A stretch of DNA of 57,866 bases, counting the filler, from Stramenopiles sp. TOSAG23-3 (lineage: Eukaryota): NCBI GenBank assembly GCA_900128585.1. It is 6 parts of 6 records of this genome, joined end to end, with 100 filler letters (N's around TTAATTAATTAA, not from the genome) between each part and the next. Parts side by side here need not be neighbours in the genome. Positions count along the whole stretch, not along the records: positions 1 to 17,265 come from LT642455.1; 5 more parts are not named here. One strand, written 5' to 3'. Below, piece by piece: positions 1 through 55,985 of this stretch. Positions within the stretch are counted from its first letter, which is position 1; each line of letters opens with the position of its first letter. A program made the translations under genes and the position numbers. The notes below the pieces were generated by a model, which saw only the letters and a program-made list of their open reading frames with translations, searched no databases and was not told the DNA's origin.

Positions 1-1
1 G

Positions 2-3949: not shown

Positions 3950-4374
3950 ATCTTATAATCACTACCCCCATCCGATTAATCATGTCAACCAATTAGGAAT
4001 GGGCAACATGGTTTCAGCTTCAGCTCACTTCATTGAAACGAGTTAATTAAACATATATTATATACAATACCATTTTTTTATCAGAGAGAGAGAAGAGAGA
4101 GGTTATTACTATACTCTTCTCTCTATTGGTTAATAATAGGGTTTCGTCGATTTGAAATAATAATATATTTTTTCGGAATTTTTCACCATTAAATCAACAA
4201 TTTTCAGAAAGACGTAGACTTTCCACAAAATGAAATGAATTGAAACGAAAGCAGAGTAAAAACGAGGGGGAGCGGAACGTATACCGAACTTCAAAACTAA
4301 ACGTTCTGTCAATTTCTTTGCCGTCGAATTCGCCCGATTGTTTTCTCTTTCTTCGGTGGTGGGCGTGCAACAAT

Positions 4375-5766
4375 ATGAACCGGTTCTTGGTGTTTCAGGC
4401 ATGTCGCCGGTTGCAAGGCGGTGCGTTTGGTTCCGTTCGAACGGTTTCTGGGGGCGTCTTTCGTGGGGCCCTTCCCCGTTCGAACTTACCTGTTGGCATC
4501 GTGAAATCGACTGTCGGTGGGCGAGTGTTTCAGACGAATGTGGGGATTTTGCGCGGGACAGCGTACGCAAATTCCTTACGGCATGCCCGGAGTACCATCC
4601 GGCCAAAGTCGTCCGCGGGCACCGCCATGGCTGCCGCCGGGGGGGCAGTCCCGTCGGTGTCCCGCGCGATTCCCCAGGACAAACTCTTGGCCTCCTGGAT
4701 ACTCGCGACTGGCGGCATGGTCTTTGGAATGGTAACGCTGGGAGGGGCAACTCGTTTGACCCGGTCCGGGCTCTCGATGGTGGACTGGAAGCCCCAAGGG
4801 AGGCCGCTGCCGTCCACGACGGAGGAGTGGGAGTTTGAGTTTGAAAAATACAAGGCCTTCCCGGAGTACCAAAAGTTGAACCAGAACATGACGCTGGGGG
4901 AATTCAAACGAATCTATTTTATGGAATGGGCGCACAGGATGTGGGGCCGGGCAATAGGCCTGGTCTTTGCCGTGCCTTTGCTCGGGTTTGCGGCCGCCAA
5001 GCGAATCCCGAAGCAACTGTACGGCCGGCTGGCGCTGCTGTTTGCGATGGGCGGGGGCCAAGGGTTGGTGGGGTGGTGGATGGTGAAGAGCGGCTTGACG
5101 CACGAACATCTGCCAGGGATATCGCGGAGCGAGCACGACACCCCTCGGGTGAGCCCGTACCGGCTGACGGCTCACCTCTCGATGGCGTTCGCGACGTACG
5201 GTGTGCTGATGTGGACCGGGATGAACTTGCTCACGGGCCCCCCGCGCGTGAAGAGCGGGGCCTTCAACTTGTCGGTCGCAAACTCGGCGTTGAAAGCGCT
5301 TCGGTCGCGGTCGAAAGGGGGCGCAGCGCTGCTTGGGCTGACGGTGTTGTCGGGCGCATTCGTGGCGGGGAACGACGCGGGGCACGCGTACAACGATTTT
5401 CCGTACATGGCGGGGGAGATCATCCCCGAACAGATCTGGATGGACCACCTTGGGCTTCGAAACTTGTTTGAGAACACGGCCACCGTCCAGTTCGACCATC
5501 GGGTCCTGGCGTTCACAACCCTCGGCACGGTCGGGGGGTTGTTTTTGTCCGCCCGTGGGAACTCGTTGGTGTGGAACAGTCTGAACCCGGACGCAAAGCT
5601 TGCATTGACCTCCCTGGTTGGCGTGACGACGGCCCAGGTTGGGCTTGGCATCACGACGTTGATGATGTACGTCCCGGTAGAGTTGGGAGTCGCGCACCAA
5701 GGGGGTGCATTGACCCTGTGGACGGTCGCACTTTGGCTGGTCCACACGCTGCGGTACGTGAAGTAA
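4375..5766 (+). CDS. COX15: Heme A synthase (cytochrome c oxidase assembly protein COX15), mitochondrial
   Basis: Motifs LGGATRLTRSGLSMVDWKP, FMEWAHRMWGR, GWWMVKSGL, RVSPYRLTAHL, GAFVAGNDAG, ENTATVQFDHR, VAHQ. ATG at 4375 gives an Arg/Ser-rich transit-peptide-like N-terminus. Confidence 0.95.
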   Translation: MNRFLVFQACRRLQGGAFGSVRTVSGGVFRGALPRSNLPVGIVKSTVGGRVFQTNVGILRGTAYANSLRHARSTIRPKSSAGTAMAAAGGAVPSVSRAIPQDKLLASWILATGGMVFGMVTLGGATRLTRSGLSMVDWKPQGRPLPSTTEEWEFEFEKYKAFPEYQKLNQNMTLGEFKRIYFMEWAHRMWGRAIGLVFAVPLLGFAAAKRIPKQLYGRLALLFAMGGGQGLVGWWMVKSGLTHEHLPGISRSEHDTPRVSPYRLTAHLSMAFATYGVLMWTGMNLLTGPPRVKSGAFNLSVANSALKALRSRSKGGAALLGLTVLSGAFVAGNDAGHAYNDFPYMAGEIIPEQIWMDHLGLRNLFENTATVQFDHRVLAFTTLGTVGGLFLSARGNSLVWNSLNPDAKLALTSLVGVTTAQVGLGITTLMMYVPVELGVAHQGGALTLWTVALWLVHTLRYVK

Positions 5767-5874
5767 GTGACGAAGTACGAACCAACTATATTTTTCTAGA
5801 AACACACACTCTAATAAAAAAAGCTACTGAGTTACAGAAATACGTTCATGCATAGAAAGGAACCCCACTCTGCA

Positions 5875-7425
5875 CTACACGACCATTTCTTCCACCGCGG
5901 CGGCCGCCTGACCCTTCGCCCCCGTGCGCCCGCCCCCGAACGCTTCTTTCTTGGAGCTCTCCTCTTGTTGAAACTGCATGTCGATGCTCTCTTCGATGCC
6001 GTCGATCTGGTCCTCCATGCCGTCCAGGTGCTCCTCGACTTGCTGCTGCTGCTCCAATAGCAACATTTCGTAGTCCCATGTCGAAAAATGCTTCGTGTGG
6101 ACCGCAAACATAATGAGCTCGCTGATGAGGACGCAGAAGACTGCCACCAGAATAAGGAAAAACGAATCGTACAGCGCGGCAAAATCGACGCAGTACCCAT
6201 GGATCATGTCGAACTGCTCGTTGTAGTACTTGACCTGCGCGTGGCTCTCGTCGATGGTCGAGTTCAAGACCGCAACGATGGACCGGCCCTTGTCGAGCTC
6301 TTCCTGCGGGTCGAACGCGGTCCCCAAGGCTCTCCCCCGCCCTGCGTGAGCGTCTGCGACGGCGGTCACCGGGAGCCAACGGAGCAGGTATCGCGCGTGG
6401 TCGCTCACCGACGGGATCGGCAACTCGGGAAGCGGGTTGCTGGCGGGGGCGCCTTCCCCGTCCCCGACCTTGGGCCGGCTGGCCATCTCGGCAACCTGGC
6501 CGATCCCGCTGTTTTCAAACTGGGCCTGGAGGTCGACCCATTTCTGATACTGAGCAAGGACGCTTCGCATGGTGCTGTCCGCGCCCCCGAGGGCCGCCTT
6601 GGCGAGCGCGATGTACTCCTCCACCTTTTCTATGTACGTTTTGACCAAGTTCCGAAAGAGGCCGCAGGTGTGGGCAAGGGTAAAGGACAGGCCGGTGGAG
6701 ACGGTGGTCACAAGGAAGAGCAAGAGGCCGACGACGTACGAGACGAAGAGGAAGACGGTCCCAAAAATGGCCCAGGCGAGCTGGCAGCCCTCCTGGCACG
6801 CCCACTCGACCGCCACGCACGTCTTGTGGCACCGGTCGGACTTTGCGCAGCACGTGAAGCAGCGGCACCGGCAACACTCGCGGGCACCCCGGCACTGTAG
6901 CTCGCGCTGCGTCTGGAGGACTCCGATGACGACGCCGTGGACGAAGACCGCGACGTGAACGAGGACAAACGCGAGCGCTATGAAGACTACTTGAAACACG
7001 TACATGTTGATCTGCGAGGTGTCCCCGTACTTGTAAGTGATGTCCCGGACGTTCAGCACAGCGGTCGACGACACGGCAAAGGCAACAAGGGTGAGGCCAA
7101 GGCCAAGCGACGCGCCCAACGGCCAGTTGTCCAGTCCAAAGCACCACTTGGCGACTTGAAACGCCCGTTTCGTGAGACGTTTTACCCCTCGCAACTTTCG
7201 GAGCCCTTCCATAGCCCTCGTCAAGTTTTTCTTCGTTCGCGAATAGACTCTTCCTCGACCTCCACCTGACCCTGAACCCAACCGCACCGAAAGGGAGACG
7301 GGTGGCATCGTCGGGGCCACCGCCGCACTACGGCTCGTTGATTTCTGCATCTCCCGGTGCACCCCATTCTCGTTGTCCGTGCTTGGACCAAGGTGGTTTC
7401 GTTCGGACTGTACGATTGCTGCCAT
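5875..7425 (-). CDS. Four-TM membrane protein with Cys-rich loop and acidic coiled-coil tail; resembles the M6/proteolipid (PLP) family layout
   Basis: 516-aa ORF with four hydrophobic segments, a CCRCRCFTCC cluster between TM2 and TM3 and a large loop between TM3 and TM4. Family assignment is tentative. Confidence 0.7.
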   Translation of the reverse strand: MAAIVQSERNHLGPSTDNENGVHREMQKSTSRSAAVAPTMPPVSLSVRLGSGSGGGRGRVYSRTKKNLTRAMEGLRKLRGVKRLTKRAFQVAKWCFGLDNWPLGASLGLGLTLVAFAVSSTAVLNVRDITYKYGDTSQINMYVFQVVFIALAFVLVHVAVFVHGVVIGVLQTQRELQCRGARECCRCRCFTCCAKSDRCHKTCVAVEWACQEGCQLAWAIFGTVFLFVSYVVGLLLFLVTTVSTGLSFTLAHTCGLFRNLVKTYIEKVEEYIALAKAALGGADSTMRSVLAQYQKWVDLQAQFENSGIGQVAEMASRPKVGDGEGAPASNPLPELPIPSVSDHARYLLRWLPVTAVADAHAGRGRALGTAFDPQEELDKGRSIVAVLNSTIDESHAQVKYYNEQFDMIHGYCVDFAALYDSFFLILVAVFCVLISELIMFAVHTKHFSTWDYEMLLLEQQQQVEEHLDGMEDQIDGIEESIDMQFQQEESSKKEAFGGGRTGAKGQAAAAVEEMVV

Positions 7426-8989
7426 TTGTTTGGTAAAGATCGTTCATAAATACTTGCTTGCATTCAAACCCTTTCCTTTTCCTTTGGTTTTCACTCTTCA
7501 ATCTTTCACAGCTCATCTTGATTCTTGATAATTCCAGTAGTATTCCAATAATAATAATAAGTCCTTATTATTAGAAAGAAAGAAAGAAAGAAAGAGAAGA
7601 AAGAAAGAAAGAAGAATTAAAAGAAGAATTCAGTTTTTAAAGAAGAAATCAGCGTTTTTAAGTTATTTAACATTGAATAGTATGACGTAAAACAATTCAT
7701 ACTATAAATATATACTTATAATGTATTTCTATTCCTATCTAAAACGTTTTGAATCACATAGGAAAACAAAAGAAACGAATACGAATGGTTGTACTTTTAT
7801 TCATGAAATTCATAGTAATACTTCAAACTACCCTTAGGGTTTTATTCATTCATTAATAACATCCTATTTTATTGTGAAACACAAATTATCTTATCCTCAT
7901 TTTAATTAAGTATAATTTTACCAAATACAAACTTTTAATATATTAATTCTTTTATTATTATAAACATACAATAATAACAAACTTAAATCAACACGTGTCC
8001 CTCACTTGTTTCCTATCAACATTTGAAAACAAATACTACATTCTACCGTATTCTAACAGACCCAATCGAAGAAAGTTCTTTTTTCTTCTTCCTGCTATTC
8101 CTATGTACACTTTGAAAACTCTCAGCCTCTACTACAACATCCATTCATACACCACAGAGCGTAACCAATCCAACGATCCAACACCATCCTTCAAATCCCT
8201 TTCTTGATTCATTTTTTTTCTTCGTCGCTACAACACATTCAATAACATATACACAGCATCTATATTTGACCTTCATTTACACCATCATTGTATCAAACCT
8301 TCTTTGAATCTTCTTTTCCTTCGTCTTTCATTTCAATGCTGTATTCATACTATTTCCTTCTTTCAATTTGTTTTTCCACTTTTTTTCCAACATTTTCGTA
8401 CTTTTTTGAAAACTTTGAACTAAAAACCAAAGATCGTTTCGATGCTATGTATATGTAGTGAACTAAAAAATGCAATCGATCATTTCCTTCCTTCCTCGAT
8501 TTGTTCCTAAATTTCTTCTTTTTACCACAAGAAGAATTCTTCCGATTCCAATGCTATGCGCCTGTTAAATTTATCATTTGTCGTAGAAATTTCGCGAAGA
8601 AAGAAGAAGAAAGGTCACTCACTCACGCACGGAAGAAAGAAAAGGAAAGGCCCTTTACCCTTGACAGAAACTGAAAAGAATCGATAGAAATGGGGGAAGG
8701 AATGAAAAAGAAACGAGCAAACAAACAAACAAAAACTAAACTGAACGAACGTATTCAAATTGTACGTACAATTTCTTCAAACGCTTTAAACGTTTCACGA
8801 CACCAAACGCCAGAACACCGACCAGTCGGATTTCTTGCTTTTCCCACTTTACCGCATCCACGAACTTGCCCACGCACTCCACGTCAAGCGACAACCGAAC
8901 GAAAGGGACAGCGCAGCGCCTTTTTTGAACCGAACCCTTCTCTTCGTCTAGTCGTCGAACCGAGGATTAATTGTGCCCGCGTACGTTAT

Positions 8990-10459
8990 ATGGATCACCC
9001 CGGAACCACCGCACACACCCATCACCAGACTGCTGTACGCTCAAACACTCCGAACAAACAAAGCTTGCATCGAGGAACGGCGAACAGTTACCAGGAGACT
9101 CCCTCGCAGAAGGCCGTCTTCCGAAGCGCAAACTCGCTGGCATCGTCGCTCAAGGCATTCCTGTCGAACTGCTTCACGAGCGCAACCGTGGAACCACGAA
9201 CGAACGCCCCGGGTGCCATGCAGCTTGACTTTAGCAACCTGCGCCACAACAAGGCGCTCGCAAAGAGCGCCCCGTGCTCCCCAAAGGTGAACGCCCGCCG
9301 GTCGAAGTTTCCGGCCGCCGCCTCGTCGTCGGCATCCTCGAAGCACGCCGTCACGGGGAACGGGAACACCGTCGCCGTCGGCCCGTCCGCCCGACGGCTC
9401 CTCCGCCGATCGAACCACCCCGTTCTCAACGGGTTCGTCCTTGAGAAGAGCCTTCAGAACGGGTACAGCGGAAAGGTGTACCGCGGCCACGAGGCGGCCA
9501 CCCAGCGCAAGGTCGTCGTCAAGTGCTGCCGAAAGCTGTCGAGCTGGACGACCGAGACCCGGGCATTGGGAAAGCTGAAGCACGAGAACATCATCAACAT
9601 GGTCGGCGCCCCCCAGGCGAACGTTCCGTGCCCCCCGAGCATCAAAATGGGCCAAGGGAAGAACTCCCAGATGCCCGACGAGAACGGGACTGTCCCGTCG
9701 ATCCACGTCCTCGCCCAAGAGCTTGCCGAGAACGGGGACCTGTACGAGTTCCTTCAGACGAACGGCCCCGTCGACGAGCCGACGGCCCGGGCGCTCATCA
9801 AGCCCCTCGTCAAGGCCCTGGCGTACGCGTACCACCGCCACGGGGTCTCCCACAGGGACATTAAGTTAGAGAACATTTTCGTCATGAAAGACGGTACCGT
9901 GAAGCTCGGCGACTGGGGCCTTGCGGCCTTCGAGACGAAGGACCGCCAGTGCTCCAGCTCGTGCGGGACCCTCGGGTACATGGCCCCGGAAATGGTCTGC
10001 CGCCACAAGTACGACGCGAACAAGACCGACGTCTGGGCCCTTGCCGTGGTCCTCTTTAGTCTGTGCACGGGCGTGCGCCCGTACGCTGAGCCGGAGCACC
10101 GGCAGCGGTCCCCGAAGGATTTTTCCTGGAAGGACGAGTGGCTTTCGGCGATGATGGAGAACCGGTGGAAGGTGTGGTGGTTGAGCCACGCGCGGACCAC
10201 CAAGTGCATCTCCCGGGTGTCGCCCGAGCTGCGCGACATGATAGAGCGAATGTTCGACGCGGACAGCGACGGGCGGATCTCGCTCCGGGAGCTTCTCCAC
10301 CACCCGTGGATGTGCAAGGACGGGCAAGGTGCGGACAACGAGTCGGACGTCGAGAGTTTCTCCGACTCGGACTCGATGATGGACATCGACATGGGCTGCG
10401 GTGCCATCGAACGTGTAGTCACCAAGGCGGACATCGCCCGGTTCTGCCGAAAGTATTGA
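8990..10459 (+). CDS. Ser/Thr protein kinase (CAMK-like)
   Basis: NGYSGKVY glycine loop, VVVK, HRDIKLEN, DWG, GTLGYMAPE, DVWALAV. Start is uncertain: the ORF is open from 8690, and ATG 8990 was chosen where coding-like composition begins. Confidence 0.9.
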   Translation: MDHPGTTAHTHHQTAVRSNTPNKQSLHRGTANSYQETPSQKAVFRSANSLASSLKAFLSNCFTSATVEPRTNAPGAMQLDFSNLRHNKALAKSAPCSPKVNARRSKFPAAASSSASSKHAVTGNGNTVAVGPSARRLLRRSNHPVLNGFVLEKSLQNGYSGKVYRGHEAATQRKVVVKCCRKLSSWTTETRALGKLKHENIINMVGAPQANVPCPPSIKMGQGKNSQMPDENGTVPSIHVLAQELAENGDLYEFLQTNGPVDEPTARALIKPLVKALAYAYHRHGVSHRDIKLENIFVMKDGTVKLGDWGLAAFETKDRQCSSSCGTLGYMAPEMVCRHKYDANKTDVWALAVVLFSLCTGVRPYAEPEHRQRSPKDFSWKDEWLSAMMENRWKVWWLSHARTTKCISRVSPELRDMIERMFDADSDGRISLRELLHHPWMCKDGQGADNESDVESFSDSDSMMDIDMGCGAIERVVTKADIARFCRKY

Positions 10460-11122
10460 CCGACCGACGCGCACAAAACGGTAGGTTGGACCTATGCTGT
10501 TGTTCTCGGTTCCCCGTACGCCCGCGTACTTGTACAGGTTTCAAACGAAACAAAACCGGACCGATTGGACTGAAGCGCGATGTAATTAATGCCTCCCCCC
10601 ATTGTACAGACGGGCGGGCGGGCGAAGGAAACAAAGAGATGCTTGGATGCATTTGTAAATTATTAAAAACTAAACGAGAAAGAGCGAGGGAAGCAACCCC
10701 ACGCACGCACGGGGAGACAACTTCGTGGAACGTGCGTGGGTCTTGCGCACATTATTGTATGCACATACATGTACATTTTATACATATTATTTTTTTGTAC
10801 GCAATCTTAACATATTTAGGAGAGGGAGAGGAACAATTTAGAACGAGAGAGACAAACAAAACACTTGTTTTCACAATTTTTAACGCGCCCGTTTCCTGGA
10901 TGATACGCGTCCTTGATTTACGATCTGACATGTCGCAACATAACATAATTTATCTGGACGCGTTTGGTCTTGTTCTCGTTTGGTCTCCACCCATGATGCT
11001 CAAATTACCCCTGCCTGGCCCACACCCACTAGCCCGCCGACGCGTTGGCCTCTCTCTCGAATCCCGACTGTACACTGTAAACGATCCTCGCAGCGCGTGC
11101 CCTCCCCGCCCAACTCCGGCAT

Positions 11123-13780
11123 TCAGTTCCATTTTCGAAACACCGGCTTGCAGGCGTCCCCTACGAGGAGGCCGTCGGTGTTCCCCTGGTCCAACGCCTG
11201 CTTGTACACCACGAGGCTCTCCTCGTACGCTTTCAGAAAGTACGCGACGTCCTCCATCGACGTCTGGTAGCAGGCGAGGAAGATGCCCTGGAAAAGGACG
11301 CCCCGCTTGATCATCTCCTGGATGAACAGGGTGCGAAGGGGGCTGTTGGCCTTCCCGTCGTTCCCTTTGAAAATGGAGACGTTCACCCAGGTGTTCGACT
11401 TGATGACTATTTGCTCCTCGAGCCCGGCCGTTTGGACGAGCGCCCGGACCCCCGCGGAGCAGGCCTCGACGAGCCCGTGCACGTGGCCGATGACGTCGTT
11501 CTCCCGGTAGGTCTTGATGACTTCGAGGGCGGCGGCGAGGCCGTGGGCCTCCGCCCCGTGCGTCGTGGAGCAGAGGAAGAGCCTCGGGTACTCCTTCCCG
11601 TCCCGGTCGCGGTGCTGCTTGATCCCCCCGATGTCCATGATCTCGGCCCGCCCGGTGAGGGCGCAGAAGGACATCCCGTTCCCGATGGACTTTCCCCAGC
11701 AGCACATGTCGGCCTCGTGCCCGTACACGGTGTAGGCCCCGGGGAACCCGGCCCGGTACCCGCTGACCATCTCGTCGACGATGTAGACGATCCCGTGCTC
11801 CCGGCAGATGTCCCCGATCTCCCGGTGCGCCCGGGCGACGGCTTCCCGGTCGTACGCGCAGCAGTCCGCGATGGAGTCGGGCTCCGTGATCAGGCCGGCG
11901 ATCTGGTCCGGGTACTGCCGGACGAGCTCCCGGAGGGAGTCCGGGTTCATGCTGTCAAAGGTGAGGGTGAGGGCCTTGACCTCGTCCGGGATCCCAAAGT
12001 CGCACGGGGTGGTCGCGATGAACCAGTCGTCGTAGCTGTAGAACGGGTGGTTCTTCGGGCGGCAGACGTACTTCCGGCCCGTGAACCCCCGGGCGAGCTT
12101 CATCGCGGCGGTGGTGACGGTGGACCCGTTCTTGGCCATCTTGATCCGGTCGTGGCCGGGGACCTGCGCGAGGAATTCCTTCGCCAGGACGCGCTCGAGG
12201 CTGGCCGGGCGCTGGTAGTTGGCCCCGAGGTGGAGCTGCTTCACGACGGCGTTGATCACGGGTTTGAACCCATGCCCAAGGCTGACGGAGGTCAGGCCGA
12301 GGGAGCAGTCGAGGAACTTGTTCCCGTCCAAATCGAAGACGTAGGCCCCGTCCCCGCGCTCGATGGCGGCCGGGGACAGGAGGGGCCACTGGTCGTCCCC
12401 TTTCGAGTACGTGTGGGCCCCGCCCGGGATGAGCTGGTGGATCTCCGCCCGGTACGCGTCGGACTTCTCGAAGTTCGTGCAGCGGCGAAGGGTGACGCCG
12501 CCGCGGGCCGGCACGGGCTGGCGGCGCCCCGTCGCCGTGAAGGCGTTCTGGACCTTTGCCACGGCGGCGATCGCGTCGTCGACGTCCCCGTCCGTCATGA
12601 GGGGGAAGCAGGGGAGGCTGACGATCTCCTTGTACAGGGCGTTGGCCTCCGGGCAATGGGCCTCGATCGGGGAGTAGGCCCCGTCGAAATTGTTCTGGTA
12701 GTACGCGTGCGCGTGGACGGGGAGGTAGTGGACGTTCACCCCGATCCGCTCCTTCCGCAGCGCGGTGAAGAAGGTGTCCCGGTCGCAGGTCAGGTTCTCC
12801 AGGCGCAGGCGGACGACGTAGAGGTGGTGGGCGTTCACCGTGACCCCGGGGATGTCCCGGACGGGGACGAGGGTGTCGAACCCCGCGAAGGCGGCGGTGT
12901 ACCGGGCGCATATCTCGTTCCGGCGCGCGATGAACTGGTCGAGGCGCGTCATCTGCTGGATCCCGAGGGCGCACTGGATGTCCGTGATCCGCAGGTTGTA
13001 CCCGAGCGCGACCATGTCGTAGCGGTGCGAGGCCTGGGCCTCCCGGTCCTTGTAGGACCGGTCGATCCCGTGGGTCCGGAACATGCTCGCCCGGGCGAAG
13101 AACCCGGCGTCGTTCGTGCAGACCATCCCGCCCTCCCCGGTCGTGATGTTCTTGACCGGGTGAAAGCTAAGGGTGGTGATGTCCGCGATGTTCCCGACCT
13201 TCCGGCCCTTGTAGGAGGCCCCGATCGCGTGGGAGGCGTCCTCGATGAGGACGAGGCCGTGCCGCCGGGCGATGGCGAGGAGCGGGTCGAGGTCGACCGG
13301 CTGGCCGCACATGTCGACGGCGATGATGGCCTTGGTCTTCGGGGTGACGAGGGCCTCGACCTTGGCGACGTCGACGTTCATCGTCTCCCGGTCGACGTCC
13401 GCGAAGACGACCGTCCCGCCCTCGTACAGGACGGCGTTCGAGGACGCGACGAAGGTAATGTCCGACACGATGACCTCGTCCCCCGGGCCTATCCCGGCCG
13501 CGAAGACCGCCGCATGGAGGGCGCACGTTCCGTTCGCGACCGCCACCGCGTGCGCGGCCCCCGTGTACTCGCAGACGGCGTCCTCGAACGCCTTCACCCT
13601 CGGCCCTGTGGTCAGGTACGGCTCCTGAAGGCACTCCACGACCGCCTTGATGTCGTCCGCGTTGATCGTCTGCTTCCCGTACGGAAGGGTGGAGGACCGG
13701 ACCGGGTCCCCGCCGTGCATCGCAAGGAGGGAGGCGGGGGGTGGGGTGGTGCTACCATTGGGTGTCGTCAAGGAGGCCAT
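11123..13780 (-). CDS. Fusion: PseC-like DegT/DnrJ sugar aminotransferase (N-terminal) + class-III PLP aminotransferase of the glutamate-1-semialdehyde aminomutase-like subfamily (C-terminal)
   Basis: N-half: LPYGKQTI, YLTTGP, IEDASHAIG, SFHPVKNITTGEGG (PLP Lys at 13151-13153), GYNLRITDIQCALG, VHYLPVH. C-half (about 11123-12487): IPGGAHTYSKGDDQ, DLDGNKFLD, KNGS, HPFYSYDDWF, DEMVSGYR, WGKSIGNG (PLP Lys at 11690-11692), STTHGAE, KPVFRK. Confidence 0.92.
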   Translation of the reverse strand: MASLTTPNGSTTPPPASLLAMHGGDPVRSSTLPYGKQTINADDIKAVVECLQEPYLTTGPRVKAFEDAVCEYTGAAHAVAVANGTCALHAAVFAAGIGPGDEVIVSDITFVASSNAVLYEGGTVVFADVDRETMNVDVAKVEALVTPKTKAIIAVDMCGQPVDLDPLLAIARRHGLVLIEDASHAIGASYKGRKVGNIADITTLSFHPVKNITTGEGGMVCTNDAGFFARASMFRTHGIDRSYKDREAQASHRYDMVALGYNLRITDIQCALGIQQMTRLDQFIARRNEICARYTAAFAGFDTLVPVRDIPGVTVNAHHLYVVRLRLENLTCDRDTFFTALRKERIGVNVHYLPVHAHAYYQNNFDGAYSPIEAHCPEANALYKEIVSLPCFPLMTDGDVDDAIAAVAKVQNAFTATGRRQPVPARGGVTLRRCTNFEKSDAYRAEIHQLIPGGAHTYSKGDDQWPLLSPAAIERGDGAYVFDLDGNKFLDCSLGLTSVSLGHGFKPVINAVVKQLHLGANYQRPASLERVLAKEFLAQVPGHDRIKMAKNGSTVTTAAMKLARGFTGRKYVCRPKNHPFYSYDDWFIATTPCDFGIPDEVKALTLTFDSMNPDSLRELVRQYPDQIAGLITEPDSIADCCAYDREAVARAHREIGDICREHGIVYIVDEMVSGYRAGFPGAYTVYGHEADMCCWGKSIGNGMSFCALTGRAEIMDIGGIKQHRDRDGKEYPRLFLCSTTHGAEAHGLAAALEVIKTYRENDVIGHVHGLVEACSAGVRALVQTAGLEEQIVIKSNTWVNVSIFKGNDGKANSPLRTLFIQEMIKRGVLFQGIFLACYQTSMEDVAYFLKAYEESLVVYKQALDQGNTDGLLVGDACKPVFRKWN

Positions 13781-13939
13781 GATGGTGATGCGGATGATGC
13801 CGAGTCAAAATTCAATTCAAAGCAAAGCAGACGAAGGAGGAAGGGAAGGAAGGAAGGAAGGAAAGAAAGGGGGGAATTTTGCTCTGGTCGGTCGGAGGGC
13901 GAACAAACTTTGAAGGCTCGACGGCACAAACAATCAGAA

Positions 13940-13959
13940 ACACACACACACACACACAC
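13940..13959. repeat. (CA)n microsatellite
   Basis: acacacacacacacacacac upstream of the PseC-like gene. Confidence 0.9.
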
Positions 13960-14322
13960 GTAAATGAGAATGCAATGCGAATCAAATCAAAAAAACGTTA
14001 TGGATCCCTATTTTTAAAAAAGAAAAGGAACTTTCCTTTCTTCTCCAATACCGAAGACGAAGACAGACATACTTCAGACCAAAACTTTCCCAAAATTTCA
14101 AATTTTCCAATTCAATTAAAATATTTAAACTTTCTTCAATAAATGAAATTAAACACATAGGAATATTGTACTTGTATTATCCCTTAGACATACACAAAAT
14201 GAACGTTTTTCGAGGAAACACTTTCATAAATTCATATTGTCTACCCTTTACAAGTACAATATTAAACGTAGATTTCATAGGTCATTTATATCATACATCA
14301 AAGAAGATATAAATTCCATTTC

Positions 14323-14523
14323 TCATTGATAGGAAAGTTTGTACTAAAATCAACTAAGTAAAGAAACAATAACTATTAACTACACTACCCTCTATCAAAT
14401 AGTATATCATAATTAGAAAAACAGCAGAAAACAAAAAACTTATACATAATTATAGCATATAACGAAGATATTTATACACGTTACTTTTTTATGTATATTT
14501 AGTACAATCTTTCCTATCAATGA
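14323..14523. repeat. 26-bp inverted repeat (25/26 identical) bounding 149 bp; MITE-like
   Basis: TCATTGATAGGAAAGTTTGTACTAAA (14323-14348) versus TTTAGTACAATCTTTCCTATCAATGA (14498-14523). Confidence 0.75.
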
Positions 14524-15231
14524 TAATAGGAATTGAGAACCAACCAATCAAATTAAAATATTCATACCTCTCACAGCATCAACAATGTATCCCTATTATC
14601 TATACCTTTTTTATATCTCATTACACTATCATTAAAATGAATACAACTACAACTACTTCCCCATTCTTCCCCTTATTCCTATGCTAACCGAACGAATACA
14701 ATGCTGTATCTATGCTAATGATCATACATTCCTATCAAACACATAGTCTAAGAATTATACAAGTATATTTATACCGAATTGAACTATTTGTATACGTTGT
14801 GATAGGAAGATGTGTACTAAAGTTACAAATATAAAAACGGATAAAAATATCTTGTGTTAATGCTATTGTGATCTATAATCGTTTTGCTTTCTGCTATTTA
14901 TCCAATGATTGTATACTAACAAATAGGAAACATTGTACTAAACGGATGTTCAAACTTTACTTCAATTTTTTTTTGGCAATTTGTTTTCCAAAAATTATTC
15001 CAAATTCCTTATTTCCCAATTGGATTGAAACATTGAAACATTGAAACGGTGCACAAAAAAAGGTTCGTTCAAAAATCTATTCCGATTTTCTCAACACGTT
15101 TGTCTTTCTTGCATCGTTGCGGCCTTGTGGTTCCGTTCGTTCTGTCGCTCTCTTCGTTGCTTGATTTGCGTTTCCCCCCTTCCTTCCTTCTCTCTCTCTC
15201 TCTCTCTCTCTCTCCCCCCCTTCGTTTTCCC

Positions 15232-17184
15232 ATGGCAGGGGTAGCGTCGGACGGTGTGCTGCCGGGGTCCTCGGATATTTACCGGTACCTTCGGGCACGG
15301 GAACCGGCGGAACTCCCGGACGCGTCGGATTACATCGAAACGGTGGCCAAGCAGCGGCCGTTCGTCGTTGGGCTCGTTCAGGCCCGTATGGGAAGCACGA
15401 GGCTCCCTGGAAAAGTCCTCCTTCCCCTCCCAAAGGAGGGCGGCATGCCCGTCCTGTGGCACGACTTTCAGCGCCTGAAAGCGTGCAAGAACGTCGACCA
15501 GTGGGTCCTTGCGACGTCGACGTGGCACACGGACACCGTCCTGGAGGAGTTCTGCACGGAGCACGGGATTGCATGCTTTCGGGGGAGCGAGTCGGACTGC
15601 CTCGAACGGCTGTTCACCGGGGCCGTCGCGCACGGGGCAAAGGAGGGGGACTACGTCCTTCGGATCACCAGCGACTGCCCGCTCATCGACGCCGGCCTCG
15701 TCGACCGGGCCGTCGAGGAGGCCGTCGCGGGGGGCTACGACCAGTACGGGCTCTGGGACCAGGTCCCACGGTCCACGCGGTACGCGGACGGCCTCGACTG
15801 CCAAGTCTTCAGCTTCACCGGGATGGAACGAATGAACCGGGAGGCCAAGGAGCCCCACGAACGGGAGCACGTCGGGCCCTTCATGATGGACCACCCCGAC
15901 CGGTTCCGCCTCGGCCACTTGGACTTTCCGTACGCGAAAGGGAAGAACCGGAACTGGACCCTCGACAACCCGAGGGACTACGACTTCCTCTCCGAGGTCT
16001 ACCAGCGCCTGTGGCGGGGGAAAGACGCCGCGCCCTTCAGCATCGACGACCTGATCGCCCTGCTCGACCGGGAGCCCGCCCTCTCCGACATCAACCACAC
16101 CCCCGCCGAGCTCCAGAACGAAGGCCTCTTCAAGTCCTTCCGGAGCAAGATCAAGGCCCACGGGGGGGGCGACTACCACGCCCGCCGCCTCACGAACTTT
16201 GCGAAAAGCTCGCAGCTCCGGGGAACGCGCGCCCACGTTCCCGTCCAGCCCGTGCTCGCCCGCGGGGACGGGGCCTTCGTCTACGACGTCGACGGGAACG
16301 AGTACATCGACGTCGCCATGCGCGGCGGGGCCGTCGCCTTCGGCCACCTCTACGACTTTCGGGAGGCCAAGGCCCAGGGCCCGCTGACCCCGGCGGCCGC
16401 CAGCGCCCCGGGGGAGGCCCCCGGGGCGGCCACGATCGAGGCCACCGCCGCGCTCCGCCGGCTCTTCGCGAAGCCCCACGTCTTTTACGCGAGCTCCCTT
16501 GCCGGGGCCCGCCGCGTCGTGGCCGGCCTCGCTGGGGACCGCGCCGTGCTCGAGCGCATCGACGACCTCGACCACGGCCTCGCTGCCCGCGCCCCCGCCG
16601 GGGCCGCCCGCGTGCTCTTCGAGGACCGGGCCGCCGGCCGGCTCGCCTTCCCCGCCGTCTCCAGCGTCCAGGGCATCGACTGCGACGCGATTGTCCTCGG
16701 GCCCACGTTCGCCAACGGCGAGACCTTTTTTCCCGTGCTCTGGAGGACCCGCGACGAGGGCATTCGCAGGGCGGCGGGCGACTGCGCGGAGTGGGACGGG
16801 GACCGCGCCTCCCCCCACGGCGTCAACCGGGCGGCCGCGGCCGTCCTCCGGGCGATCGAGTACCACCAGAAGCATTTTGTCGTCTTCAACCTTCACCGGT
16901 TCTACACCTCCCTGCGCTCTGGGTTGATCTCTGGGATCATGGGGAACGGCATGGAGGATAAAGTGGTGCTCCGGGAGGGCGGCGGCCGGATACAGATTGC
17001 CCTTGCCGAGGGTGCAGGGGACCCGCACGCCTTTGCCGAGACCATCTGGGCGGAAATGCTCGCCCGGGGGATCCACATCACGAAAGACCTCTACGTCACC
17101 CCGTGCTTTGCGTACGAAACGGAGATCATCGTTAGGATGACCCTCGCCTTCGACGCTGCCCTGGTCGTGTACAAGTTCAATTGA
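15232..17184 (+). CDS. Fusion: SpsF-type (COG1861) acylneuraminate-cytidylyltransferase-family domain + degenerate class-III aminotransferase-like domain
   Basis: LVQARMGSTRLPGKVL, FRGSESDCLER, RITSDCPLID, YADGLDCQVFSF, EREHVGPF, WTLDNPRDY, NEGLFKS. From 16183: RGDGAFVYDVDGNEYID and LGPTFANG (no catalytic Lys). ATG 15232 lies just after a (CT)n tract. Confidence 0.9.
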   Translation: MAGVASDGVLPGSSDIYRYLRAREPAELPDASDYIETVAKQRPFVVGLVQARMGSTRLPGKVLLPLPKEGGMPVLWHDFQRLKACKNVDQWVLATSTWHTDTVLEEFCTEHGIACFRGSESDCLERLFTGAVAHGAKEGDYVLRITSDCPLIDAGLVDRAVEEAVAGGYDQYGLWDQVPRSTRYADGLDCQVFSFTGMERMNREAKEPHEREHVGPFMMDHPDRFRLGHLDFPYAKGKNRNWTLDNPRDYDFLSEVYQRLWRGKDAAPFSIDDLIALLDREPALSDINHTPAELQNEGLFKSFRSKIKAHGGGDYHARRLTNFAKSSQLRGTRAHVPVQPVLARGDGAFVYDVDGNEYIDVAMRGGAVAFGHLYDFREAKAQGPLTPAAASAPGEAPGAATIEATAALRRLFAKPHVFYASSLAGARRVVAGLAGDRAVLERIDDLDHGLAARAPAGAARVLFEDRAAGRLAFPAVSSVQGIDCDAIVLGPTFANGETFFPVLWRTRDEGIRRAAGDCAEWDGDRASPHGVNRAAAAVLRAIEYHQKHFVVFNLHRFYTSLRSGLISGIMGNGMEDKVVLREGGGRIQIALAEGAGDPHAFAETIWAEMLARGIHITKDLYVTPCFAYETEIIVRMTLAFDAALVVYKFN

Positions 17185-17208
17185 GGAGGCGAGGGGGGGA
17201 GGGCAGAC

Positions 17209-17265
17209 AGAAGGAAGGAAGGAAGGAAGGAAGGAAGGAAGGAAGGAAGGAAGGAAGGAAGGAAG
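17209..17265. repeat. (GGAA)n microsatellite at contig end
   Basis: Perfect GGAA tandem array running into the N linker. Confidence 0.95.
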
Positions 17266-17365
17266 NNNNNNNNNNNNNNNNNNNNNNNNNNNNNNNNNNN
17301 NNNNNNNNNTTAATTAATTAANNNNNNNNNNNNNNNNNNNNNNNNNNNNNNNNNNNNNNNNNNNN
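17266..17365. other. Artificial contig linker N44-TTAATTAATTAA-N44
   Basis: 100-bp spacer carrying stops in all six frames; the same linker recurs five times in the window. Confidence 0.99.
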
Positions 17366-17653
17366 GGGGGGGGGGGGGGGGGGGGGGGGGAGCGAAAAAA
17401 ATTGCATTTTTGCTATAAAATCCAATAAATATTATGTATGTAGTACCGTATGGGAGAGCCTGAGGCATGGAAGGAAAAAAATGTATGGAAAGAACATTTA
17501 AAAACGAAAAGAGTTACAGACACACTCATTTTATAGATGTATACACATCCAGGCAAGCATATATTATCTCGTTAGCAAACGAACGAACGAACAAACCGTT
17601 GTGCAGCCCACCATCATTCACGGAACGAATATTGCTGGAGACATACCGTCACC

Positions 17654-23837: not shown

Positions 23838-26180
23838 TTAGATGACAATATGAGGAGGAATGAAAGCATCGCTTCCGTCACTGGATCTTTGCACACTAAC
23901 AGCAGATTCAATACCTTTGGCAAACCGCTTAACCCATTGCTTTGGCCTGAACAGTGCGCTTGTATGTTCGTCCTTGTTTGCAGGACTCGGAACGCCGTCG
24001 ACACTTTGAACACGGACTGTTTCCAAGGCTTCTCTCATGTCTTTCAGTATTCTGTGGAATTTCCCTTGTTTTCGGCACACCGAAACGGCCAGATCTTCAT
24101 AGGCTTTCATCGAGTAGACGATTCCATCTTGAATGTTCACCGCTGCGGCCAAACTTTTCCCCATGCGTCGGACGAGCGTGTCCCTGGGCATTGTTATCGA
24201 TGGGGTACCAGCCCACATCGTGTCTACTCCTGTTGCGCCAGCATTATATTCCACATTGTCCAACACCACGTTCGCTGCTCCGATCCTCCCCACGTATTGT
24301 TCTTGCGGGGCAAAATCACTGAAAAACAAATGGTGTTCGGGAACCCCCCGTGCCAGCAATTCCTGGATTATATTGTATTCTGCTGCACCCGGGTGGCGGA
24401 GCAGCCACAGTATTATGCGTCCCTCGTGGCATTTTCTGCGGGCACGGCGGAAGACGTTTGCCCATATATCGAGCAGGCTTGGGCTTACCTTAAACAGCTG
24501 GTTGAAATTAGAATACACAAACGACTGCTTTGGAATGCCCAGGTCTCGCCGATTGCGGTGGGGTTTGATTTTGTAATACGGGAGTTTTCGCCGGTGATCA
24601 CCAACAAAGATGGAAGGTGGCAGCACTATCAGTTTCTCTGCATACTGCCTCAGCCTATGAACCCGGCCATCCGGACCAAGCCCCGGCATGCTCACTTCTT
24701 CAACAATTGCCGTTTTTGCGTCAACAATGGCGTAGTCTAAAAGTTTAGAGTTCCCAATTGTACACGGCCAACCCAAAAACCCGACTTGCAATTTCGACGG
24801 GCGGTGCGCAAAAATTTCTGGCCTTCCGCCACTCGTGAACCCGTTCAGATCGAACAAAACATCGATGCTATCCTTCGCAATCAGTTTCGCGGCGTCTAGG
24901 TCATGCATTCCATATATGGAGCGGAAACTGTGAACGTTTTCCGCCAACTCGACGTGGGACAGAATCCCTTTTATTGGGCGCTTTTGCAAGGGTGCTAGGG
25001 AGTACAAATGGACCAAAAACGAATTCCCGTCCGACGAGAACATAGAAAAAATATTTTCCAGCAAATGCATCATGGGGTGCTTCGATCCAAAATCGGAAGA
25101 TACAAACCCGATACGAATGGCCGTTTCGCCCGTTGCAGACTTTTTTCCCGCGTCGAAAGTAAGGGAGGGACCGACCCTGGTAGAAATGTGTTTCCCCCAA
25201 CTAGTCATCAAGGAGAAGAGCGTCGTGGAGTCCATGAATGAGGACAGCGCCCGCATGGGGGTCATGGAAAGTTTGTCCTCTGTGTTGCGATCTATTGCCG
25301 AGCGAAGCAATCCGTACACTTGCGCGTCTATAATATCTAATCCATTGTACAAAGCGGTGTATCGCATTAAGTGGGCCAACGCACATATGCATCGGTAGTA
25401 CAAGTTTTGCTTTTGCGATGAATCCTCCCCGAGGCCCACAGCCTCTCTTAGGGCATTGATCGCCCCGGAATAGTCTGGGGTTGGCTCGGAACCAAGCAAG
25501 CTGTCGTGCAAATCGTACAGAACCTCCGATCGGGTCAGCCGGCGGGAATGCCCTTGCTTGTCTAGCAACAGCGACTTCAAAAAATGCTTGCTTGCAATGT
25601 GGTACCCATTCATTTTGGCTTCTATTATGCCAAGTTTCCAATGCACTTCTGGAAAATTGTAATTTATCGTCAAAACCCTCTTTAAAACCTTCCGGGCACG
25701 GAGCAGGTGCTTCCTATCCCCGTCCATGAGTTCGCGACGGTCGTTGGGGATCAGCGTGAGACCGTAATTATAACCGTACAACTCGTTCTTGCGCTTGGAC
25801 AGTTTCCATGCTTTTTTGTAGTAGCCGATGGCTTCCTTTCTCCGACCCGCGGAGGTGAAAATACTCCCCGCATTGTTTATCAACGCGTGGTGTTCCGGCT
25901 CTAATTCGACGGCTTCCTTGTACACCTCGCACGCTTTCTCGTGATCGCCGACTCTGGAGTAAAGAGAGCCAAGATTATGGAGGTCGAAGCCAGTTTTTCT
26001 GTACTTTAAGACCTTTTTGTACGCTTTTATTGCCCCCTGCAGATCGCCAACCCCTTTCTTTTCCCCGCCAATTTTTGACCACTTCTCCGCCAAGTTTGCC
26101 CACTTCTTTCGAGCCCCCCCGAACGCAAGCAGCAGAAGAAAACAAAAACTACTTCGAAGCAACCAGCAGAACCGCCTCAT
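23838..26180 (-). CDS. TPR + GT41 glycosyltransferase (O-GlcNAc transferase/SEC-like) with N-terminal hydrophobic signal
   Basis: TPR repeats followed by RIGFVSSDFGSKHP, IDVLFDLNGFT..RPEIFAHRP..QVGFLGWP, FNQLFK, LWLLRHP, DTMWAGTP. First ATG at 26180 gives MRRFCWLLRSSFCFLLLLAFGGA. Confidence 0.88.
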   Translation of the reverse strand: MRRFCWLLRSSFCFLLLLAFGGARKKWANLAEKWSKIGGEKKGVGDLQGAIKAYKKVLKYRKTGFDLHNLGSLYSRVGDHEKACEVYKEAVELEPEHHALINNAGSIFTSAGRRKEAIGYYKKAWKLSKRKNELYGYNYGLTLIPNDRRELMDGDRKHLLRARKVLKRVLTINYNFPEVHWKLGIIEAKMNGYHIASKHFLKSLLLDKQGHSRRLTRSEVLYDLHDSLLGSEPTPDYSGAINALREAVGLGEDSSQKQNLYYRCICALAHLMRYTALYNGLDIIDAQVYGLLRSAIDRNTEDKLSMTPMRALSSFMDSTTLFSLMTSWGKHISTRVGPSLTFDAGKKSATGETAIRIGFVSSDFGSKHPMMHLLENIFSMFSSDGNSFLVHLYSLAPLQKRPIKGILSHVELAENVHSFRSIYGMHDLDAAKLIAKDSIDVLFDLNGFTSGGRPEIFAHRPSKLQVGFLGWPCTIGNSKLLDYAIVDAKTAIVEEVSMPGLGPDGRVHRLRQYAEKLIVLPPSIFVGDHRRKLPYYKIKPHRNRRDLGIPKQSFVYSNFNQLFKVSPSLLDIWANVFRRARRKCHEGRIILWLLRHPGAAEYNIIQELLARGVPEHHLFFSDFAPQEQYVGRIGAANVVLDNVEYNAGATGVDTMWAGTPSITMPRDTLVRRMGKSLAAAVNIQDGIVYSMKAYEDLAVSVCRKQGKFHRILKDMREALETVRVQSVDGVPSPANKDEHTSALFRPKQWVKRFAKGIESAVSVQRSSDGSDAFIPPHIVI

Positions 26181-26739
26181 TCGAACCGCCGCCACACAGG
26201 CCGGCGTGCTGTTCAATACAATCTGCTGTAATCCGAGAATGTTCGGCCGTCTTCCAGCAGTTCACCTTTTGGGTCACCAAATCAACAAATATGTCGCTTG
26301 TTCCTTTTGGGGTTGACGTCAGCTCCAGAAGAAGTGTCGTGGTAAGTAATGGTTGGTGTGGATAATAAAATACTATTTTAGTCGTCTATGTATACGAGGA
26401 GAATAGACAATAATTTAAATGTGTAATCAGCAGCAGGCAGGGGTAGGTTGTTGAGGGAGGAAGGAGAGGGGGGCGGGGGGAGGACTGACTTTTTTTTATA
26501 TTATTATTAAAATAAATTCAAATTCATCAATCTTATCATCTTGAGTCCTAGGATATATAGAGACTCCACAAACTAAATATTTACGAAACAAACATGGTTT
26601 AGTCATTGTAAAAAATTGACAATGTCTGAACTATAGACATTTCTCTGTAACGAACAGATCATTTTATCGCCTTCGGAAGTAGTTCTGTACAAGAAAGTGG
26701 GTGCTTCCATTGTGTTAGGAAGTTGCGTAGTGTAGTTCG

Positions 26740-34626: not shown

Positions 34627-34726
34627 NNNNNNNNNNNNNNNNNNNNNNNNNNNNNNNNNNNNNNNNNNNNTTAATTAATTAANNNNNNNNNNNNNNNNNN
34701 NNNNNNNNNNNNNNNNNNNNNNNNNN
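34627..34726. other. Artificial contig linker
   Basis: N44-TTAATTAATTAA-N44. Confidence 0.99.
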
Positions 34727-51921: not shown

Positions 51922-52021
51922 NNNNNNNNNNNNNNNNNNNNNNNNNNNNNNNNNNNNNNNNNNNNTTAATTAATTAANNNNNNNNNNNNNNNNNNNNNNN
52001 NNNNNNNNNNNNNNNNNNNNN
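51922..52021. other. Artificial contig linker
   Basis: N44-TTAATTAATTAA-N44. Confidence 0.99.
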
Positions 52022-53903: not shown

Positions 53904-54003
53904 NNNNNNNNNNNNNNNNNNNNNNNNNNNNNNNNNNNNNNNNNNNNTTAATTAATTAANNNNNNNNNNNNNNNNNNNNNNNNNNNNNNNNNNNNNNNNN
54001 NNN
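53904..54003. other. Artificial contig linker
   Basis: N44-TTAATTAATTAA-N44. Confidence 0.99.
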
Positions 54004-55885: not shown

Positions 55886-55985
55886 NNNNNNNNNNNNNNN
55901 NNNNNNNNNNNNNNNNNNNNNNNNNNNNNTTAATTAATTAANNNNNNNNNNNNNNNNNNNNNNNNNNNNNNNNNNNNNNNNNNNN
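55886..55985. other. Artificial contig linker
   Basis: N44-TTAATTAATTAA-N44. Confidence 0.99.

Follow-up and report, generated by a model that had tools for sequence, protein, structure and literature searches.

Are the bacterial-type genes for an activated amino sugar that appear in the assembly of an uncultured marine stramenopile truly part of its genome, and what might they do there? The question is raised by two head-to-head fusion genes in Stramenopiles sp. TOSAG23-3 (assembly GCA_900128585.1): gene 1, in which a PseC-type aminotransferase is fused to a class-III pyridoxal phosphate (PLP)-dependent enzyme, and gene 2, in which an SpsF-type cytidylyltransferase is fused to a degenerate class-III domain. 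The whole stretch analysed (57.9 kb, hereafter the window) consists of six contigs in series, joined by five identical artificial linkers, N44-TTAATTAATTAA-N44. Its first piece (1-17265) carries the pair together with an EGF-domain protein, COX15, an unknown open reading frame (ORF) and a protein kinase. A preliminary description of this DNA had placed COX15, the kinase and the EGF protein correctly on the contig of the pair, and had proposed that an operon acquired by horizontal transfer was refactored into two fusions serving a CMP-amino-sugar pathway, at a locus with no described eukaryotic counterpart. We conclude that both are genuine genes in the nucleus of an uncultured marine protist, probably acquired from bacteria, and that a CMP-nonulosonate role is plausible and unproven.

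The two divergent ORFs and all four domains, including the degenerate class-III half, were recovered by ORF calling, Pfam and NCBIfam searches and alignments, in agreement with the first account (Table 1). The N-terminal domain of gene 1 passed the PseC equivalog model TIGR03588 (436.1 bits against a cut-off of 423.5); its scores with other DegT models were 306.5 for ArnB (cut-off 631) and 235.1 for the LegC family (cut-off 420). Residue K210, the PLP Schiff-base lysine in SFHPVK (an SFHxxK motif), is invariant in the ten sequences of alignment A3; in the same set of gene 1 and nine relatives the class-III domain keeps its own Schiff-base lysine, K697, and the D669/E670 pair, which includes the Asp that binds the PLP nitrogen, without variation. 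This second domain matched Aminotran_3 (PF00202) over residues 471-781 (E 5.5e-28), and its closest solved structure was 2e7u, a HemL (E 8.3e-37). It aligned to NF004856 (PRK06209, named glutamate-1-semialdehyde (GSA) aminomutase) over model positions 6-441 of 450 with 458.2 bits, short of the cut-off of 486, and missed the HemL model TIGR00713 widely (152.1 bits against 527.3). Identity to bacterial class-III genes adjoining SpsF ('type A') was 46-52%.

In gene 2, the cytidylyltransferase had the 'Cytidylyltransferase' 6oew as its closest solved structure (E 2.2e-29), and its QARxGSxRLPxK and SDCPLID motifs were invariant between gene 2 and bacterial SpsF-class-III fusions in our alignments. 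The C-terminal half did not reach the Aminotran_3 cut-off of 30.5, scoring 18.6 bits over 37 residues only, and showed large deletions relative to bacterial fusions (alignments A1 and A2). At the Schiff-base lysine site gene 2 reads LGPTFANG versus WGKGIANG or FGKAMANG in bacteria. As this lysine is absent from all four eukaryotic gene-2 orthologues, its loss is probably old, and the domain is nevertheless maintained as an open reading frame. The copy in the window has a further deletion of ~55 residues relative to the orthologues P0173-P0175. A language-model look-up (Atlas feature) still placed the dead domain as Aminotran_3-like, at a borderline 0.90. An AlphaFold2 model of gene 2 built on an 8-row alignment had a mean predicted local distance difference test (pLDDT) score of 57.1, with 75-94 in the cytidylyltransferase and values below 50 at residues 310-549; the predicted PLP-binding core of the dead domain thus has no confident fold.

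The pair is not a lone locus. Gene 1 orthologues of the same architecture (P0002-P0006, 59-71% identity) were found in several clusters at 90% identity from marine data; the P0003 cluster includes EukProt proteins labelled 'Stramenopile-MAST_4', and another cluster contains an unlabelled EukProt model. Related PseB-PseC and PseF-PseC fusions also exist. Gene 2 has orthologues P0173-P0175 and a 650-aa copy from other data (P0172, 99% identity), with EukProt members among them. Across orthologues, identity was 58-74% in the gene 1 domains, 76-81% in the gene 2 cytidylyltransferase and 27-32% in its dead domain. At high identity, the PseC-class-III architecture was represented by a single 50%-identity cluster (P0006) among the best 150 of 1.84 billion representatives, and the fusion is close to being specific to this eukaryotic clade. 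The host is probably a MAST-type stramenopile.

Independent data sets bear on the integration of the pair. The 7-kb stretch, or part of it, was present in 20 of 24 listed public runs from 13 studies, six being RNA libraries. Four runs from other studies, DNA runs X4 and X6 and metatranscriptomes X3 and X8, were aligned to positions 4000-17200; pieces at least 99% alike numbered 15/23, 16/28, 11/13 and 17/21 in X4, X6, X3 and X8, respectively. Every gene from COX15 through gene 2 was covered. Contigs from the RNA libraries tracked gene bodies: the kinase (8787-10613 or 8787-10764), gene 1 (X3, 10826-13167 and 13142-13804; X8, 10799-12766 and 12768-13488) and gene 2 (X3, 15228-17199). DNA contigs covered gene 1 (X4, 10567-11975 and 12317-13804) and gene 2 (X4, 15272-16103 and 16292-17071; X6, 15434-16424). 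As the X8 contig 8787-10764 overlaps the X4 contig 10567-11975, the kinase is linked to gene 1 in independent samples. RNA-library contigs also bridge both domain junctions, so the fusions cannot be put down to misassembly of the source data. A 10,071-bp contig of the European Nucleotide Archive (ENA), the longest listed both for the COX15 cluster of the window and for a gene-1 fragment, gives circumstantial support to the linkage of COX15 and gene 1. No introns were seen, and no joints were reported in the RNA-library contigs over the two genes; the pair appears to be transcribed. The RNA-library contigs that reach into the gene 1 ORF begin at 10826 (X3) or 10799 (X8); contigs cannot define transcript ends, and the bounds of the probable 3' untranslated region of gene 1 are therefore approximate. 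Both proteins carry N-terminal extensions not seen in bacterial relatives in the alignments. The claim of genuine integration is supported on the left flank, where independent contigs tile from the kinase into gene 1, and not on the right, where the neighbour is an artificial linker. The contig ends 81 bases past the gene 2 stop, and only the left flank of the pair is real sequence.

The ancestry of each domain was addressed by quick IQ-TREE searches, with support from the Shimodaira-Hasegawa-like approximate likelihood-ratio test (SH-aLRT) only. In these trees the eukaryote-type clade of every domain was embedded among bacterial-type sequences, which supports the bacterial origin first suggested; nested in bacterial trees and linked to the kinase by independent contigs, the pair is best read as horizontally acquired bacterial genes. 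The gene 2 cytidylyltransferase fell inside a group of bacterial SpsF-class-III fusions ('type B', SH-aLRT 86). As SpsF-class-III fusions of ~700 aa are abundant in bacteria (seven full-length matches in a 151-genome sample of one phylum), gene 2 was probably acquired already fused, and the simplest reading is that it came ready-made and then lost one activity. The rare bacterial PseC-class-III fusions P0008 and P0071 stood apart from gene 1 in both the class-III and the PseC tree, so that the fusion in gene 1 appears to have arisen separately, within this eukaryotic clade or close to it. The proposed refactoring of an operon into two fusions is thus retained for gene 1, with its nearly clade-specific architecture, and is improbable for gene 2. 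A further bacterial candidate for a PseC-class-III fusion by tblastn, from Bdellovibrio (L064), resolved into separate ORFs.

In the class-III tree, the gene 1 domain, its orthologues, P0065 and the dead domains were split from all sampled bacterial sequences with a support of 100. P0065 is an 812-aa fusion of an aldo-keto reductase (AKR) to a class-III domain, with five near-identical members; in the tree it sides with class-III domains of the eukaryote type, away from those of bacteria. The position of the dead domains beside the live ones could be read as a duplication within the eukaryote; the branches are very long and we do not claim it. The approximately unbiased (AU) test did not reject grouping the dead domains with type-B bacterial fusions (p 0.517). 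Among viral contigs, a gene 1 query gave one partial match only (34% identity), and an A3 query gave 80 loci matching in the PseC domain only, with 52% identity at best (L101). The PseC-class-III fusion was present in none of these 80 loci, a result that neither backs nor dismisses a viral route. PseB occurred in 29 of the 80 loci, SpsF in 17 and NeuB in 13; L101 itself (7013-16128 of a 188-kb IMG/VR contig filed as viral) has PseB-PseC-AKR-SpsF-classIII and a NeuB homologue in a row.

Pathway context came from the relatives of gene 1 and from bacterial gene neighbourhoods. The PseC domain of gene 1 lay in a clade of ten (SH-aLRT 99-100) in two trees, the second of which was enlarged by 34 sequences, the best PseC-domain representatives in the library of 1.84 billion. 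Besides seven PseC-class-III proteins, this clade holds a PseB-PseC fusion (P0050; PseB 435 against a cut-off of 407.75), a PseF-PseC fusion (P0011; PseF 254.9 against 205.7) and a transcript of the dinoflagellate Pfiesteria piscicida (P0009) encoding a partial PseF and PseC. The named domains of these three proteins all exceed their curated cut-offs, save for PseF in the Pfiesteria protein, which is truncated and scores 128.7 against 205.7. Among 50 bacterial loci of at least 15 kb, SpsF was directly upstream of, or fused to, a class-III gene in 41; a NeuB-family synthase was found in 19 at a strict threshold and a GNAT in 31. Type-B fusions were less than 9 kb from NeuB in four of four loci examined. 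The co-occurrence with nonulosonate clusters in bacteria, to which the first account referred, is thereby supported, also by individual loci: in Chryseolinea (L046, 5550-15571) the order is PseB-PseC-GNAT-AKR-SpsF-classIII-methyltransferase-GNAT-phosphoesterase-ATP-grasp-NeuB, in Halobacteriovorax (L063, 3854-13412) SpsF-classIII accompanies NeuB, AKR and an epimerase-DegT fusion, and in Flavobacteriales (L014, 7971-14559) we read GT2-GNAT-SpsF-classIII-SDR-NeuB-DUF4910, SDR being a short-chain dehydrogenase/reductase. Published clusters point the same way. In a Vibrio cluster that lacks NeuA, PseC is followed by an SpsF-like cytidylyltransferase joined to an aldo-keto reductase, which has been put forward as the substitute for NeuA (PMC7371886). 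For the O-antigen locus of Legionella serogroup 6, a table places PseG and a 'GSA aminomutase' next to a cytidylyltransferase, an oxidoreductase, DegT and CapD (PMC3694923). Fusions in several pairings tie PseC, SpsF, class III and AKR together. A recurrent bacterial module to which no chemistry is assigned combines GNAT, SpsF-like, PRK06209-type class-III, SDR/AKR and NeuB genes, often with DUF4910/DUF2172.

As the bacterial PseC, SpsF and class-III families occur in pseudaminic-type clusters beside a NeuB/PseI-type synthase, a nonulosonate role is likely here too, and we favour, with moderate confidence, the participation of the pair in the synthesis of a CMP-activated 5,7-diamino nonulosonate, resembling pseudaminic acid, for surface glycans. 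PseC-type aminotransferases act on UDP-2-acetamido-2,6-dideoxy-hexos-4-ulose, and the PseC domain of gene 1 would supply the early 4-amination. The class-III domain of gene 1 may supply a further PLP-dependent tailoring step, and the SpsF domain of gene 2 would supply CMP activation. Some SpsF-class-III fusions (~1020-1050 aa) add a Gfo/Idh/MocA domain; by analogy, the pairing of class III with a reductase or with this fused oxidoreductase suggests an oxidation-transamination at a sugar hydroxyl, for which Kdo8N synthesis is the model. The data show the domain content, the state of the catalytic residues, the eukaryotic context on the left, the occurrence in independent DNA and RNA libraries, the bacterial affinities and the gene neighbourhoods in bacteria, and from these we infer the substrate, the product, a common pathway and co-regulation of the two genes. 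A wider version of this proposal, in which marine heterotrophic stramenopiles, and perhaps dinoflagellates, make pseudaminic-type sugars through a pathway rebuilt from bacterial parts as multi-domain proteins, and in which the dead domain of gene 2 would be a prozyme-like dock that holds the cytidylyltransferase close to the live class-III half of gene 1, is possible but on balance unlikely. Prediction of a complex between the gene 1 class-III and gene 2 dead domains gave 0.00 and 0.00, which is uninformative on binding either way.

Comparison with known systems gives these proposals their outline. The CMP-pseudaminic pathway of Helicobacter and Campylobacter (PseB, PseC, PseH, PseG, PseI and PseF) is approached in that the N-terminal domain of gene 1 passes the PseC model, its relatives include PseB-PseC and PseF-PseC fusions, and the neighbouring gene 2 belongs to the Pfam family of PseF. 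It differs in that only one of its six canonical enzymes is recognisable here, that gene 2 is of SpsF and not of PseF type, and that the present system has an extra class-III PLP domain and a eukaryotic host. Gene 2 shares domain order and cytidylyltransferase motifs with the bacterial SpsF-class-III fusions and the GNAT-SpsF-classIII-reductase-NeuB modules, which come from Bacteroidota, Bdellovibrionota, Thermodesulfobacteriota and others and whose proteins are usually labelled 'glutamate-1-semialdehyde aminomutase / SpsF'; in the eukaryote, however, the class-III half of gene 2 is dead, and it is PseC that carries a live class-III domain. SpsF of Bacillus subtilis, the CTP_transf_3 protein from which the name derives, is reportedly a proposed CMP-nonulosonate synthetase of the sps legionaminic-acid pathway; it has no class-III fusion, and is set beside gene 2 by its family and this proposed role. 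HemL shares its fold type with the gene 1 class-III domain, for which it is the closest solved structure, whereas the bacterial relatives of that domain are found in a context of sugar biosynthesis and not of haem. Trypanosomatid AdoMetDC and deoxyhypusine synthase have dead-paralogue 'prozyme' partners; as there, a catalytically dead version of an oligomeric enzyme fold has persisted next to a live one through long divergence.

Several observations weigh against the proposed role or the reality of its expression. None of PseB, a PseH-like GNAT, PseG-like, NeuB/PseI, canonical PseF, AKR, SDR or DUF4910 genes was detected in the window by tblastn at E <= 1e-3, in line with the earlier remark that the PseB, PseG, PseH and PseI/NeuB partners are missing from the contig. 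Gene 2 had no match to the PseF equivalog TIGR03584 at E <= 0.01 among the 18 families listed for it, and its KdsB matches were far under their cut-offs. The class-III domain of gene 1 is, by sequence, a close relative of the NF004856 family and a near miss, not a certified member, and a literature search, supplementary tables being outside it, found no characterised reaction for SpsF-linked class-III enzymes of the PRK06209 type. In the 50 bacterial loci, PseB and PseC were within 10 kb of SpsF-class-III in one and eight cases, respectively, so the module is not strictly tied to the canonical Pse route. The runs compared are assembled contigs and not reads, and give neither strand, transcript ends nor expression level; an RNA library may, moreover, contain DNA. 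Finally, the GC content at third codon positions (GC3) is 0.95 in gene 1 and 0.89 in gene 2, above the 0.69-0.79 of the other genes on the piece, and we have no explanation for this difference.

How far do these points favour other explanations? The pair could consist of real eukaryotic genes of bacterial origin that serve no nonulosonate pathway, or no common one, which we regard as possible and on balance unlikely. The PseC-like domain could then produce a UDP-4-amino-4,6-dideoxy-hexose for another glycan, and the SpsF-like enzyme could activate another acid sugar, such as Kdn or Kdo, both of which microalgae are known to contain, or another substrate. Such a role would agree with the fact that ArnB (252.7 bits) and the perosamine synthetases are, by sequence, the solved structures nearest to the DegT domain, ahead of H. 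pylori PseC (2fn6, 198.4), with the lack of a PseF-model match in gene 2, with the scarcity of nearby PseB and PseC at most bacterial SpsF-class-III loci, and with the Kdn synthesis and CMP-Kdn synthetases that passages of PMC6200933 place in microalgae. However, gene 1 exceeds the PseC equivalog cut-off and its clade holds PseB-PseC and PseF-PseC fusions passing the PseB and PseF cut-offs, both bacterial types of the SpsF-class-III module adjoin NeuB-family synthases, and PseC, SpsF, class III and AKR are fused to one another in several pairings, one of them in the Vibrio cluster cited above (part of PMC7371886).

Decay of the system appears improbable. According to this explanation the pathway is incomplete in the lineage, and the genes are decaying or are kept for an unrelated, possibly non-catalytic role, as the dead half of gene 2, its additional deletion in the window copy and the missing partner genes could indicate; but against it stand the conservation of the gene 1 domains and of the gene 2 cytidylyltransferase across orthologues, the latter with intact catalytic motifs, the uninterrupted state of both ORFs and the recovery of both genes from metatranscriptomes assembled in two studies. 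Least credible of all, and barely worth entertaining, is a chimeric amplification or assembly that joined bacterial contaminant DNA to a eukaryotic contig. The window is indeed stitched from short contigs, the two data sets in which the sequence is best represented, X1 and X2, are very small at 12 and 8 million letters, there is no right flank, and the GC3 of the pair is an outlier. Yet both genes recur, 99% identical, in independent metagenomes and metatranscriptomes from other studies, where contigs tile from the kinase into gene 1, and the ENA contig is a circumstantial tie to COX15; the spacer and the sequence downstream share the AT-rich composition and the microsatellites of other intergenic regions; the N-terminal extensions have no counterpart in bacterial relatives; and orthologues bear EukProt labels.

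Table 1. Coordinates of the gene pair, its domains, the spacer elements and the contig boundaries in the window
Feature	Position	Strand	Evidence or remark
Gene 1, PseC-type aminotransferase fused to class-III PLP enzyme	11123-13780	-	intronless ORF, 885 aa
PseC-type DegT domain, residues 38-407, SFHPVK lysine K210	12560-13669	-	PF01041, E 8.6e-120
Intact class-III (fold-type I) domain, PRK06209 type, residues 435-885	11126-12478	-	NF004856, 458.2
Probable 3' untranslated region of gene 1	10826-11122	-	RNA-library contigs, two studies
Gene 2, SpsF-type cytidylyltransferase fused to dead class-III remnant	15232-17184	+	intronless ORF, first ATG 15232, 650 aa
CTP_transf_3 (SpsF-like) cytidylyltransferase domain	15370-16005	+	PF02348, 81.5 bits against cut-off 22.6
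Degenerate class-III domain (pseudoenzyme)	16132-17181	+	lysine lost, large deletions
Divergent intergenic spacer	13781-15231		1451 bp, GC 0.33, repeats near both ends
(AAGG)n repeat	13834-13870		Tandem Repeats Finder (TRF)
(CA)n run	about 13938-13960		read from sequence
ATAGGAA-N4-TGTACTAAA motif, four copies, span 14329-14942	14329, 14498, 14802, 14923	+, -, +, +	pattern search
(TC)13 repeat	15189-15214		TRF
(GAAG)14 microsatellite	17210-17265		real contig end; TRF
Artificial linkers	17266-17365, 34627-34726, 51922-52021, 53904-54003, 55886-55985		adjacency across each is artificial

The spacer between the two genes matches the 1.45 kb originally reported, and the microsatellites described around the pair are present, with the correction that the (GAAG)n tract is the contig end and not an internal flank. 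Such spacing is ordinary in this genome, since another divergent pair on the same piece, 5875-7425 (-) and 8690-10459 (+), is separated by 1264 bp; the GC content of the spacer is also typical, intergenic values being 0.21-0.49 over the whole stretch. All four matches to the ATAGGAA-N4-TGTACTAAA motif lie inside the spacer and none elsewhere in the 57.9 kb, with 0.00 expected, and the first two copies, 149 nt apart, make up an inverted repeat of 37 nt with 89% complementarity. The motif could be a shared cis-element or a decayed small inverted-repeat element; it is no evidence for a single bidirectional promoter. RNA-library contigs had no depth at 14143-15024, an interval partly covered by DNA runs X4 and X6, and this gap is a weak hint of separate transcripts for the two genes. 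On the shared bidirectional promoter put forward in the first account, the relevant observations are the divergent arrangement, the spacer-specific motif and the presence of both genes in the same RNA libraries, whose contigs give no expression levels; such a promoter is a conjecture. Scans of the contig of the pair found no Rfam families or tRNAs.

Regarding the remainder of the window, genes from 17366 onward lie on other contigs and therefore give no evidence of linkage to the pair. Their GC3 is mostly 0.41-0.65 in pieces 2-6, with one gene at 0.74, and the gap between these and piece 1 may reflect strong regional GC heterogeneity or more than one organism in the assembly. The closest named relatives of the COX15 on the contig were the stramenopiles Hondaea (54%) and Nannochloropsis (51%); plants score similarly, hence the pointer is weak. 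Piece 2 opens with a run of 25 G (17366-17390), which probably arose at the contig end through faulty amplification, sequencing or assembly. Other contigs of the assembly encode an O-GlcNAc-transferase-like GT41 with tetratricopeptide (TPR) repeats and a GH20 hexosaminidase (23838-26216 and 32404-34461).

The enzyme families and the type of pathway discussed here are already known; the eukaryotic host, the clade-specific PseC-class-III fusion and the conserved dead class-III domain are new, and there are indications that several protist lineages hold Pse-type fusion genes. In passages of PMC5811610 and PMC6200933, pseudaminic and legionaminic acids figure as sugars of bacteria and archaea. We found no description of a eukaryotic pseudaminic pathway in the literature on stramenopiles, protists and dinoflagellates, supplementary tables being outside the search; part of PMC8208679 places five algal or alveolate synthases inside a PseI-rich group. 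The pair is thus a solid and widespread module derived from horizontal gene transfer, by which the pathway itself is not demonstrated.

Its biochemical implication is testable and rather surprising. Gene 2 is a natural case of a pseudoenzyme domain, its lysine lost in all four orthologues compared, and the pair points to a large uncharacterised bacterial module in which SpsF, a class-III enzyme and a reductase stand beside NeuB. If the proposed role is true, pseudaminic-type sugars, so far treated as prokaryotic, would join eukaryotic surface glycobiology in the ocean, which would change what these sugars indicate in environmental glycomics and may bear on recognition between protists and prey, viruses or symbionts. 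The two genes would then also offer a tractable case in which a bacterial pathway was re-packaged, once transferred, into fusion proteins.

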